A DNA stretch of 64,000 nucleotides from assembly GCA_020697715.1 (NCBI GenBank), contig JAEHCO010000001.1:416001-480000 (forward strand), in the 5' to 3' direction. The translations under genes and the position numbers were made by a program. Positions 22,554 through 30,844 of this stretch are shown in pieces; within the stretch, counting starts at the first letter, position 1; the number at the start of each line of letters is the position of its first letter. The notes under the pieces are model-generated. The model was not told the DNA's origin. It searched no databases and worked only from the letters and a program-made list of their open reading frames with translations. This DNA comes from Methanobacteriota archaeon (GTDB lineage Archaea > Thermoplasmatota > Thermoplasmata > SG8-5 > JAGLSY01).

Positions 22554-22646
22554 TTCTATTCTCGTCATATTTTCATCGTACTCATAGAACGGCACTGATC
22601 TTTGTTGAGATATGCTCAATTCTTTTATTGTGATTTTAATTAATTC

Positions 22647-22718
22647 AGAATTGGGCTGGCGCGAAAAATGAGAATGAACGTCGATAAGTGCTCATTTTTC
22701 CCATCCCGGCACCCGTAC
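22647..22718 (+). repeat. Degenerate copy of the tRNA-Gly 3' half with a hairpin in place of the T-loop
   Basis: ATCCCGGCACCCGTAC (22703-22718) is identical to 22536-22551. AGAATTGGG resembles AGAACTCGGG. A GAAAAATGAG/CTCATTTTTC stem lies between them. Confidence 0.75.
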
Positions 22719-28950: not shown

Positions 28951-29127
28951 CTTGCTCTATATTTAAACAGGTGTTTATACAGGGTTGGAAGGGGGACTAA
29001 ATATGAACCTATATAATAGTGTTTCCTACAAATATGGTATAATAGGTGTATTAAAAAGGGTTTTATACAATATCATAATACCATAGGCTACTCGACCAGG
29101 CTTGCCTGGGTGAGATATCACATGCGC

Positions 29128-29225
29128 AATCTGGACTTAGCTTAGACTGGCTGAATGATTTTCCCCTTGCGGGGTAACTCATTCTCGCACAATTCCTGTG
29201 GGATCATGCGAGGAGCGGCTGACCG
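29128..29225 (+). repeat. Degenerate copy of the tRNA-Tyr 5' half, interrupted in the D-loop by two hairpins
   Basis: CTGGACTTAGCTTAGACTGGCT (29131-29152) matches tRNA 29252-29273 with one mismatch. After a 59-nt insert, GAGCGGCTGAC (29213-29223) resumes the tRNA sequence. Confidence 0.8.
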
Positions 29226-29251
29226 AATAAAGGATTGCTCATTCGCCAAAT

Positions 29252-29371
29252 CCGGACTTAGCTTAGACTGGCTAGAGCGGCTGACTGTAGTTAAGTACCC
29301 CGGAAATGCTAAGCGCATTTCCGGTATCAGCCGATATCAGCAGATCCCCGGTTCAAATCCGGGAGTCCGGA
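29252..29371 (+). tRNA. tRNA-Tyr(GTA) with a 45-nt intron at canonical position 37/38 (29291-29335)
   Basis: CCGGACT/AGTCCGG acceptor stem (C1-G72), GCTGA-CTGTAG|A-TCAGC anticodon arm, CCCGG-TTCAAAT-CCGGG T-arm. The intron folds as CCGGAAATGC/GCATTTCCGG. Confidence 0.93.
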
Positions 29372-29393
29372 CTCTCTTTATTTTCTTATTATA

Positions 29394-29452
29394 CGGCCTC
29401 CCGGTGAGCAAGTCATCACGTCAGTGTTGACTTGGCTCCGGAGCCCGGACTC
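29394..29452 (+). repeat. Degenerate copy of the tRNA-Tyr 3' half with a hairpin in the T-loop
   Basis: CCCGGT-[GAGCAAGTCATCACGTCAGTGTTGACTTGGC]-TCCGGAGCCCGGACTC versus tRNA CCCGGT-TCAAA-TCCGGGAGTCCGGACTC. Confidence 0.7.
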
Positions 29453-29549
29453 CATTAATTACAGTAATGTATCATCTGCTCATTCTTCGCTCCCGCCTTC
29501 CAGCCCCCCGCCCCCAATTATTTTATCCCGCCCTCTCATTCCACTTCCA

Positions 29550-30395
29550 ATGGCAGAATACCCCATACTTGACAATCACATGCATCTCCAGCAGGATGGA
29601 CTTTGTGAAAAGGCCGCTATGGATTTTGAAAATACTGGAGGAACTCACATCATACTTTCCCACATGCCTTATCACACGATCAATATTACCAAAGGCGATG
29701 ATTTCCAGAAGGAATATGACATCACCCTGAATACTGCCAACAGGGTGAGGGAGACGACCAATGTGAAGGTATTCACCACACTTGGCCCCTATCCCGTGCG
29801 ACTTATAAGATTGGAGGAAAAGCATGGTCTTGAAGCCGCGGTGGACATCATGAAGAAAGGTATGGAACTGGCTGCCAAGGCAGTTGAAGAAAAGCAAGCT
29901 GTCGCTATCGGGGAGGTCGGGCGTCCACATTTTCCAGTCTCTTCTGAAATATGGGAAGCGTCGAATGAGATAATGCTATATGGGATGGAACTGGCCAAGG
30001 ATGTCGATTGCCCCATCGTGCTGCATACGGAAAGTGCGGGTCCCGAGGTCTGGGAGGAGCTGGCCCTGATGGCGGATGAAGCAGGCCTTCGTCGTGAGAT
30101 GGTGATCAAACACTACTCACCACCCATTGTCAAGGAGGAGGAGAACCATGGCCTATTCCCGTCAGTACTGGCAAGTCGCAAATCTATCAAGGAAGCACTG
30201 TCACACAATACCAGGTTCATGATGGAGACCGATTATATCGATGATCTTCGAAGACCGGGAGCTGTGATGGCTCCCACGACAGTGCCAAAGAGAACGAAGG
30301 CGCTGATTTTGAATGGAGACATGGGTGTAGAAGCGGCCATCGCCATTCACCAATACTGGCCAGAGAAATTGTACGGTATTGAAATCGAATTTTAA
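29550..30395 (+). CDS. TatD-family amidohydrolase (archaeal type)
   Basis: DNHMH, IGEVGRPH, LHTE, KHY, METDYIDD.RRPGAV and WPEKLYG. Start at MAEYP. Confidence 0.9.
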   Translation: MAEYPILDNHMHLQQDGLCEKAAMDFENTGGTHIILSHMPYHTINITKGDDFQKEYDITLNTANRVRETTNVKVFTTLGPYPVRLIRLEEKHGLEAAVDIMKKGMELAAKAVEEKQAVAIGEVGRPHFPVSSEIWEASNEIMLYGMELAKDVDCPIVLHTESAGPEVWEELALMADEAGLRREMVIKHYSPPIVKEEENHGLFPSVLASRKSIKEALSHNTRFMMETDYIDDLRRPGAVMAPTTVPKRTKALILNGDMGVEAAIAIHQYWPEKLYGIEIEF

Positions 30396-30428
30396 TAATA
30401 ATAATAATTTTCAAAAGCTTCGCCATCT

Positions 30429-30775
30429 CCCTCTTGAATAAGGGGTATCTGGACGGCGGCAAAACCGTCCAGATTGAGGAGAGGAGTAAATCCTTAATGA
30501 ACTCTCCAAAACAAAGGGTTTGGGGGCGGTTTGAAACCACCCCCAAGGTTGAGGAGAGGGCTGATAGTGATCCCCTTTGGGCAAAGGGGGTCTGGGCGGG
30601 GTCAAAGCCGCCCATATTGAGGAGAGGAGGTAATCCTTAATGAACTCTCCAAACAAAGGGGTCTGGACGGCGTTTAAACCGTCCAGATTTTGAGGAGAGG
30701 GCTGATATTTAACCCCTGGAAAGGGGTATGGGATGGTTTGAAACCGCCCCGATATGAGGAGAGGAGTAATCCTGA
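30429..30775. repeat. Tandem array of five ~64-75-nt double-hairpin units, each ending in TGAGGAGAGG
   Basis: TGAGGAGAGG at 30475, 30550, 30618, 30691 and 30755. Each copy is preceded by AAGGG(G)T and a GC-rich stem whose sequence varies while pairing is kept. Confidence 0.9.
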
Positions 30776-30844
30776 TCTTTGTGATTTGAATAGTAAGGTC
30801 AAATGTGGGTGACCAGGCATCCCGGCCAGCCACCCACAATTGGA

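Follow-up and report, generated by a model that had tools for sequence, protein, structure and literature searches.

What is a gene for a transfer RNA (tRNA) doing between broken pieces of its own sequence? The question is raised by the tRNA-Tyr gene of a Methanobacteriota archaeon (GenBank assembly GCA_020697715.1; GTDB lineage Thermoplasmatota, Thermoplasmata, SG8-5, JAGLSY01), which lies within a stretch of 64,000 nucleotides (nt) of contig JAEHCO010000001.1 (positions 416,001 to 480,000), hereafter the window; all coordinates below refer to it, and features are on its plus strand unless stated otherwise. Upstream of the gene there is a copy of its 5' part, and downstream a copy of its 3' end, both combined with hairpins. 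A preliminary description of the locus, made from the sequence, offered several readings of this arrangement, among them the relic of a second, multi-intron tRNA-Tyr with the real gene in the place of its anticodon loop. The comparisons reported here, which involve the source genome (G000), three genomes of the same genus (G001, G002 and G003), one of another genus of the same family (G004) and several more distant relatives, point elsewhere: the Tyr flanks are one case, unusual for having both halves, of partial-copy elements that are common in this order. Elements of this class are found at about a third of the tRNA genes of the source genome and also in two other families of the order (genomes G005 and G007).

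The core of the upstream element is a direct repeat (29128-29152) that consists of AAT and tRNA positions 1-22, that is, the 5' strand of the acceptor stem, the 5' strand of the D stem and the D-loop. It matches positions 29249-29273 at 24 of 25 sites, with a single C>T difference, so that the 22-nt copy with one mismatch reported originally is indeed there; its exact 20-nt portion, searched with blastn-short against the flanks, has an expectation value (E) of 1.3e-7. Exactly at the D-loop position, the copy gives way to an insert of two hairpins (29153-29184 and 29185-29211; inverted repeats I3 and I8), which was correctly recognized in the preliminary description, except that its length (29153-29212) is 60 nt and not 59. 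The insert folds with -24.1 kcal/mol (z-score -4.18; none of the 200 shuffled sequences as good). Beyond it, the tRNA sequence continues, as had been noted, with GAGCGGCTGAC (29213-29223), which corresponds to the 3' strand of the D stem, position 26, the 5' strand of the anticodon stem and C32 and is identical to tRNA-Tyr positions 29275-29285 over all 11 nt; taken alone, the match of this 11-mer has an E of 0.03. The remaining proximal leader (29224-29251) is a CGAAT...ATTCG hairpin that encloses CGAATAAAGG, followed by CCAAAT. Similar motifs, CGAATAAAA or GGATAAAATCC, are located 20-35 nt 5' of the tRNAs with upstream elements in G005 and G007, and motifs of the CGAATAAAGG type might serve as a second promoter. 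A putative first promoter lies farther upstream, in a distal block (29050-29083) with the TATA-like sequence TTTTATA at 29061-29067, just where it had been pointed out. The 34 nt of this block are identical in G002, and identity to G003 extends over 42 nt (29050-29091); in G002, the block is located about 45 nt 5' of tRNA-Tyr, with no outer copy between them. The leader hairpin CCAGG-CTTG-CCTGG that was described between block and copy is present (29096-29109; inverted repeat I18), but its fold is not significant (z-score -1.49), and the stretch that contains it (29092-29127) is the least conserved one, with 50% identity to G003.

On the other side, the gene is followed by a T-rich spacer, CTCTCTTTATTTTCTTATTATA (29372-29393), which is identical to its G003 counterpart at 22 of 22 positions and, judging from its composition, is likely to be an oligo-T terminator. 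Next comes the downstream element (29394-29453; repeats D2, I13 and I15), a long hairpin closed by the copy of the tRNA 3' end. The 3' strand of this hairpin (29437-29453) reads TCCGG-AGCCCGGACTC and repeats TCCGGGAGTCCGGACTC of tRNA-Tyr at 16 of 17 positions, with one gap and one T>C, spanning the region from the end of the T-loop to 3 nt beyond the discriminator. Positions 29394-29401 pair with 29440-29447, and an inner stem occupies 29408-29436; the fold has -27.5 kcal/mol (z-score -3.36; 0 of 200 shuffles as good). The 3' part with an expanded T-loop and the placement of the real tRNA between the two parts were accurately described, and the design recurs at other tRNA genes. Across the Tyr flanks and the other linked elements, the Rfam search detected no family other than tRNA; an sR33 match near the downstream element scored 13.7 bits against a cut-off of 37. 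A C/D-box small RNA on either strand of the downstream element was considered and rejected: UGAUGA and CUGA are present on the minus strand, but with unsuitable spacing and no terminal boxes, and at positions that G002 does not conserve.

The arrangement is not a product of misassembly, because the same layout is found in G003, which contains the entire 431 nt with 88% identity, and in two independent Logan contigs from other DNA runs that span the outer copy and the inner tRNA (X1 record 1, 29126-29338; X4 record 7, 29127-29274). No other copy of the 431-nt region was detected in the source genome. Among the sequencing runs screened for the stretch of this assembly itself, the best share was 0.10 of 58 words, and two runs listed as RNA reached 0.03-0.05; metagenome contigs retrieved with the neighboring TatD protein as the query were at best 61% identical, and tRNA-Tyr was found in none of the 80 loci.

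The comparison of the source genome with G003 also bears on the possibility, raised at the outset, that the flanks are a neutral duplication scar. We aligned 40 kb of G003 to the window and used as the baseline the third codon positions of 42 open reading frames (ORFs), some of them overlapping, in which the identity is 0.67; intergenic segments range from 0.51 to 0.95. Against this background, the identity amounts to 0.96 for the 5' copy, 0.87 for the two-hairpin insert, 0.97 for positions 29213-29251, 1.00 for the T-rich spacer and 0.935 for the downstream element, compared with 0.50 at 29092-29127 and 0.76 at 29456-29552. The G003 insert retains both hairpins through changes that preserve or improve the pairing: the C-G pair 29163-29174 is replaced by U-A, the U.U opposition 29162-29175 by U-A and the U.G pair 29194-29202 by U-A. 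Taken together, the identity above the local neutral level and the pairing-preserving changes indicate that the flanks are not a neutral scar.

The two Tyr elements are a part of a genome-wide pattern. Each of the 44 ARAGORN tRNA calls of the source genome (doubtful ones were kept) was compared with its own flanks on the same strand over 300 nt, with mismatched tRNA/flank pairs (n=1792) as the control. An exact downstream copy of at least 11 nt of the last 24 nt of the tRNA was found for 14 of the 44 calls, compared with 9 of the 1792 control pairs. Two of these 14 cases are probably something else, namely Ser(GCT), which adjoins a second tRNA-Ser gene, and a Met call whose match is a 13-mer at +32; conversely, Tyr is not counted among the 14 because its 3' copy is imperfect. 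Upstream copies of at least 12 nt of the 5' end were detected for 3 of the 44 calls (Tyr, 20 nt; Asp, 13 nt; Lys, 12 nt) versus 3 of 1792 in the control. The exact 3' copies, 11-18 nt long, begin in the T-loop, approximately at positions 59-60, and extend to the discriminator or beyond (at the 14 loci, which were picked for having a match), and a run of at least four T follows the copy at 11 of 13 loci. The copies are located on the strand of their tRNA, and their order relative to the tRNA is constant. Most of the linked elements occupy only one side of the tRNA; both a 5' and a 3' element are present, in addition to Tyr, at Lys in the source genome, at locus L156 in G005 and at locus L162 in G007.

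Within the window, a second example is the trailer element of tRNA-Gly(GCC) (22554-22718), about 150 nt that end in an exact 16-nt copy (22703-22718) of the 3' end of that tRNA. At tRNA-Leu(CAG) (locus L104; G000 C22:278650-279500), there are three tandem elements, each ending in the tRNA 3' end; the second and third units (~150-230 nt) belong to a second type, outside the covariance model described below. Another tandem array was found at locus L161 of G005. The element at the Lys gene of G003 has a copy with two mismatches, and its third hairpin resembles that of the Arg(CCT) element of the same genome. On the upstream side of tRNA-Lys(CTT) in the source genome (locus L101; C11:391500-392150), we observed a repeated 49-nt unit made up of a leader, the promoter-like sequence AAATAAGAAAAC and the first 11-12 nt of the tRNA, in which each tRNA piece pairs with a complement that comes after it.

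Many of the downstream elements share a structured module. A covariance model, R1, was built from five downstream elements and searched at E up to 1. In this module, a T-stem-like helix, P2, takes its 3' strand from the start of the copy. The first of three hairpins is the short UCGAAC-GGA-GUUCGA, and the second is variable and has CGAG...CGAG on its flanks; after the third come GAUG and then the copy. The search yielded 8 sites in G000 and 6 in G003; G001 and G002 added a single marginal site apiece, and G004 gave no match. All 16 sites lie 11-120 nt 3' of a tRNA, on the same strand, and the tRNAs that bear them agree between G000 and G003. Among the 15 distinct sequences, 91.8% of the cells are paired, compared with 76.1% in shuffled alignments (none of the 500 shuffles as high); 21 of the 31 pairs are changed on both sides, partners slid along the alignment pair in 30-50%, and the inner helix covaries. 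A scan for the module motif in one genome per GTDB species produced 8 stretches, 6 of which came from metagenome-assembled genomes titled Thermoplasmata archaeon or Methanobacteriota archaeon; of these 6, five are located directly 3' of a tRNA, and the remaining one is at the end of its contig. The other two, in GC-rich bacterial ORFs, are taken as chance matches.

The six best-scoring tRNA loci among those listed were compared in each of five genomes (G003, G004, G005, G007 and G033), the 3' copies in this set being 14-22 nt long. In G005, 3' copies are present at 2 of the 6 loci and 5' copies (17-21 nt) at 3 of 6; in G007, each kind is found at 2 of 6 (21 nt for the 5' copies). The counts are 1 of 6 and 0 of 6 in G003, and 0 of 6 in G004 apart from one 11-mer on the 5' side; G033 has no copies of either kind at the 6 loci besides an 11-mer between neighboring tRNAs on the 3' side. 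The upstream elements of G005 and G007 share the Tyr design, with positions 1-21, a D-loop insert and the 3' strand of the D stem, and continue with two to three hairpins, several of which have C(UUCG)G loops, followed by the CGAATAAAA-like motif. C(UUCG)G loops stabilize RNA.

The four genomes of the genus agree in having the promoter-tRNA-Tyr-trailer cassette between the genes for L44e and TatD. Both flanking elements are present in G003, and neither is present in G004. The trailer of tRNA-Tyr in G001 matches the one that follows the second copy in G002, as expected for a deletion between the two repeats. The acceptor pair 3-70 is flipped in G000 and G003 (CCGGACT/AGTCCGG) relative to the other genomes (CCCGACT/AGTCGGG); the derived bases are found in the 5' copy of G003 and in the 3' copies of both G000 and G003, and the ancestral ones (CGGG) in the 3' copy of G002, and in the 5' copy of G000, position 3 likewise has the derived G, next to a C>T at position 2 that is particular to this copy. 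Because the derived and ancestral bases match the tRNA of each genome, the copies follow their tRNA. Relative to L44e, the entire cassette (~250-460 nt; window 29028-29488; L003 and L004) has one orientation in G000, G003 and G004 and the opposite, inverted one in G001 and G002; the inverted form is also seen in a contig of run X2.

Is there, then, an outer tRNA? Under this reading, the flanks are a second tRNA-Tyr with introns in the D-loop and the T-loop and with the real tRNA in its anticodon region, either decaying or still spliced. Collinear tRNA pieces do occur in the right order on either side of the gene; the D arm and the T arm of the outer pieces are retained, with the inserts exactly within the loops; the outer ends in G003, CCGGACT and AGTCCGG, pair at 7 of 7 positions; and paired 5' and 3' elements are found at the three other loci named above. 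Archaeal tRNAs with non-canonical introns and split or permuted tRNAs likewise have their interruptions at such D-loop and T-loop positions, and this organism has a canonical intron in tRNA-Tyr; unlike in those tRNAs, the borders here show no bulge-helix-bulge (BHB) motif and the exons make no tRNA. The BHB scanner that we used is our own program, with the geometry taken from the literature. At the borders of the D-loop insert, its best candidate scored 3/4 for H, the central helix, and combined 8 bp in the inner helix with 1 bp in the exon-exon helix, and neither the T-loop insert nor the surroundings of the inner tRNA gave a candidate; the sole strict BHB common to G000 and G003 (cuts after 29145 and 29218) is the D stem and would yield no tRNA. 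Moreover, nothing in the outer pieces corresponds to the tRNA between C32 and the T stem, which leaves them with no anticodon loop, no variable region and no 3' strand for the anticodon stem; a permissive Rfam scan (E up to 10) reports one tRNA only; the outer acceptor in G000 has five Watson-Crick pairs, one G-U pair and one A.C mismatch; and most linked elements are one-sided, with the 3' part existing without the 5' part in G002. The nested outer-tRNA reading is largely refuted and, in our estimate, very improbable, and with it goes the multi-intron paralogue. Other interpretations in the preliminary description, a tRNA-derived non-coding RNA or a leader and trailer, fit better, and the proposed pairing of the outer CTGGACT with the inner AGTCCGG is feasible, with six Watson-Crick pairs and one G-U pair. 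Optional intron splicing that would join the distal repeat to the proximal one was also rejected: the BHB-like candidates remove 120 or 122 nt, and 121 would be needed.

The explanation that we tentatively favor, with chances somewhat short of even, is that the Tyr flanks are co-transcribed, structured leader and trailer RNAs handled by the enzymes of tRNA end processing and analogous to the Escherichia coli tRNA-linked repeats discussed below. Transcription of the leader would start at the conserved distal promoter, and polymerase reading through the T-rich spacer would produce the trailer; RNase P would then cut at 29251/29252 and RNase Z after 29371, and the released elements would persist as structured RNAs. 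The copied tRNA end might supply a tRNA-like helix or end that sets processing or stability, or might compete with the tRNA strands during maturation, and the copies would be kept similar to the tRNA by recombination or selection. Minimum free energy folds draw an acceptor-like closing helix between the copy and its upstream complement. As for their origin, partial tandem duplications that spanned the ends of tRNA genes are the probable source of the elements. A bolder extension, which we consider doubtful, is that they comprise an undescribed class of structured RNAs in this Thermoplasmata order, built on copies of the outer parts of the tRNA, one comprising positions 1-21 and the D arm and the other the stretch from the T-loop to the 3' end, each beside its cognate gene. 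Where both occur (Tyr, Lys and two loci in other families), the copies could close an outer acceptor stem around the tRNA and form a nested super-precursor, in which handling by RNase P and RNase Z would couple these RNAs to the tRNA or gate its maturation.

Several observations weigh against the leader-trailer explanation. The T-rich spacer between tRNA-Tyr and the downstream element should stop much of the transcription, and only two T follow the Tyr 3' copy, in contrast to the runs of at least four at most other loci. In an ungapped complementarity test, admittedly a crude one, the closing helix exceeds mismatched controls at 3 of 13 loci, Tyr not being among them. The R1 search of the source genome gives no match at the Tyr downstream element, so the kinship of this trailer to the module comes down to the similarity of GAGCAAG and the hairpin, along with the copy itself; in addition, the R1 alignment was fitted to the model, which favors the covariation result. 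Furthermore, the elements are dispensable: G002 has the 3' element without the 5' element, and G001 has neither. The Gly(GCC) element is shrunk to ~40 nt in G003, with a degenerate copy. Finally, exact repeats often continue past the tRNA into its trailer and reach up to 29-40 nt at two loci, and such run-on repeats, together with the tandem arrays, fit a purely recombinational origin equally well.

These last features are the strength of an alternative under which the elements are by-products of DNA-level processes or selfish repeats, formed by partial tandem duplication and unequal crossing-over, with hairpin modules spread by recombination and nothing acting as RNA. The arrays at tRNA-Leu(CAG) and at L161 of G005, the clean loss between the repeats in G001, the sharing of a third hairpin between the Lys and Arg(CCT) elements of G003, the strong divergence of the Gly(GCC) element between G000 and G003, the inversion of the entire Tyr cassette in G001 and G002 and the presence of one Y1 (IS200-type) transposase in the genome are all compatible with such an origin. 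It accounts less readily for the 87-100% identity of the Tyr flanks between G000 and G003 compared with 67% at third codon positions, for hairpin pairing preserved by double changes, for the occurrence of the elements at the same tRNAs in both genomes with constant strand and order, and for the UUCG loops; in this 94%-complete genome, no TnpB, Cas1 or reverse transcriptase match was found, and there is one tyrosine recombinase. The kept hairpins do not decide the matter, because selfish palindromic repeats can also keep hairpins. On balance, we regard this origin as possible and less probable than the leader-trailer explanation. Mobile elements could have left such traces in a different way, if the flanks were attL/attR scars: elements would have inserted at two sites of the gene, its 5' part and the segment from the T-loop to the 3' end, and would since have lost nearly all their DNA. 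Direct partial tRNA copies beside an intact gene are a known archaeal signature of integration, the 3' repeats run from the T-loop to the gene end, which is a known class of integration site, and the tandem units could reflect accretion. In the Thermococcaceae, as described in PMC9897764, integration involves 44-bp repeats and elements of 9-23 kb, and integrase-mediated, tRNA-linked inversions are reported for Thermococcales in PMC5495485. By contrast, the distance between the repeats here is 64-230 nt (96 nt and 64 nt at Tyr), filled with hairpins and devoid of ORFs or cargo; the same state is observed at about a dozen loci in a 2.1-Mb genome, with a structured module common to many of them; no integrase gene is nearby, the single PF00589 match being on another contig, and there is no Cas1; the inserts are structured, covarying and conserved; and the 431-nt region is unique in the genome. 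Such an origin is improbable, clearly less likely than one by local duplication and recombination.

Three more candidates from the realm of mobile elements were examined and rejected. The guide RNA of a TnpB-like nuclease (a scaffold with a 3' guide equal to the tRNA end, and TTCGA before the target) finds no PF07282 match in the 94%-complete genome; a mini-casposon lacks both Cas1 and terminal inverted repeats at the element ends; and for a retro-element origin, there is no RVT_1 match in the genome.

Among the known systems, the nearest in kind, by analogy and not as homologues, are the tRNA-linked repeats of Escherichia coli, including rtT and RrA/RrB/RrF. According to the account in PMC8144298, these short repeats are located directly 3' of a tRNA or ribosomal RNA (rRNA) gene, the last 18-19 bp of which they carry at their own 3' end, occur at several loci per genome with one to five units per locus, and include three that are processed small RNAs, some being located between two terminators. 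The archaeal elements resemble them in lying directly 3' of a tRNA with their own 3' ends repeating the tRNA 3' end (16/17 for Tyr), in their number of loci, about a dozen, where the units at tRNA-Leu are arrayed in tandem, and in having T-runs after the tRNA and after the copy. They differ in the archaeal host and the lack of any sequence or Rfam relationship to the E. coli elements, in being multi-hairpin junctions with strong covariation, and in the existence of a mirror-image 5' class based on tRNA positions 1-21 with the D-loop insert, both classes being present at Tyr. Partial tRNA-like structures are known from plant mitochondrial t-elements, which are used for the formation of RNA ends (as described in PMC1920247), and from Haloferax, where a tRNA-like structure before 5S rRNA is cut by tRNase Z (as described in PMC3296008). 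Those structures are used by RNase P or RNase Z; the copies described here differ in being identical to the end of the neighboring tRNA rather than generic mimics. Judged by titles and the beginnings of abstracts, with supplements and subscription journals outside the scope of the search, we found no description of such elements in archaea.

The tRNA gene at the center of the locus is a normal, single-copy, intron-bearing gene. It occupies 29252-29371 (tRNA-Tyr(GTA); Rfam RF00005, 51.7 bits), with exon 1 at 29252-29290, the intron at 29291-29335 and exon 2 at 29336-29371. When introns are allowed, ARAGORN identifies the gene as Tyr(gta) with an intron of 45 nt, the only Tyr call among the 44 in the 94%-complete genome; under default settings, the program miscalls a part of the gene as Leu. 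The exons are 100% identical between G000 and G003, and the intron identity is 0.745. In the BHB scanner, the real intron shows H 3/4, h 5 and h' 1; its canonical BHB is only of the relaxed kind, the central helix being interrupted by a U33.C mismatch. In its 3' part, the intron carries TCAGCCG, which complements exon positions 25-31, CGGCUGA (window 29276-29333), and so competes with the real anticodon stem; among 13 relatives, this pairing is preserved through changes, for example, as GCGGGUG/CACCCGC in L015 and CGGCUGA/UUGGCCG in L008.

The window contains three tRNA genes. The neighbors of tRNA-Tyr on the 5' side, on the minus strand, are the genes for the ribosomal proteins L44e and S27e and for aIF2-alpha, and on the 3' side there is a TatD-family gene. 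Farther along, 3' of TatD, an intergenic array (30428-30781) is composed of ~65-72-nt units with four copies of a 31-nt core that are 61-81% alike; in Rfam, it produced sub-threshold matches only. In three genomes of genus g5, matches to the fluoride riboswitch (38-47 bits) are located ~0.6-1.3 kb from tRNA-Tyr (L011:936-997, L012:2801-2862 and L013:2235-2296). Elsewhere in the source genome, the single IS200-type Y1 transposase gene (C1:16300-17150, on a 26-kb contig) lies ~350 nt from an odd class-II-like tRNA call with the anticodon GAA, and a partial copy of that tRNA is present just upstream. A repeat that begins with GG(T/G)CGGGGTACT..ATTCGATGAG.ATTCGAGTGACA and continues with a G+C-rich hairpin is present in five copies (C11:270745, 483331 and 664374; C28:236599; C34:4909), which show no link to tRNAs.

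What these elements mean for the biology of the lineage depends on whether they act as RNA. If they are products of recombination only, they would mark tRNA genes as hotspots of small-scale rearrangement, the inverted Tyr cassette being an example, and would be a source of false calls of split tRNAs, multi-intron tRNAs and pseudo-tRNAs. The boundaries of the copies, in the D-loop and the T-loop, coincide with the loops of the tRNA elbow, which hints at a tie to tRNA structure or to the biology of tRNA fragments. If the leader-trailer explanation is true, the elements would be the archaeal equivalent of the E. coli tRNA-linked repeats, the function of which remains largely unknown after more than four decades; and, acting as RNA, they would add to the non-coding RNAs of uncultured sediment archaea a new class that is coupled to tRNAs and extends across the lineage.

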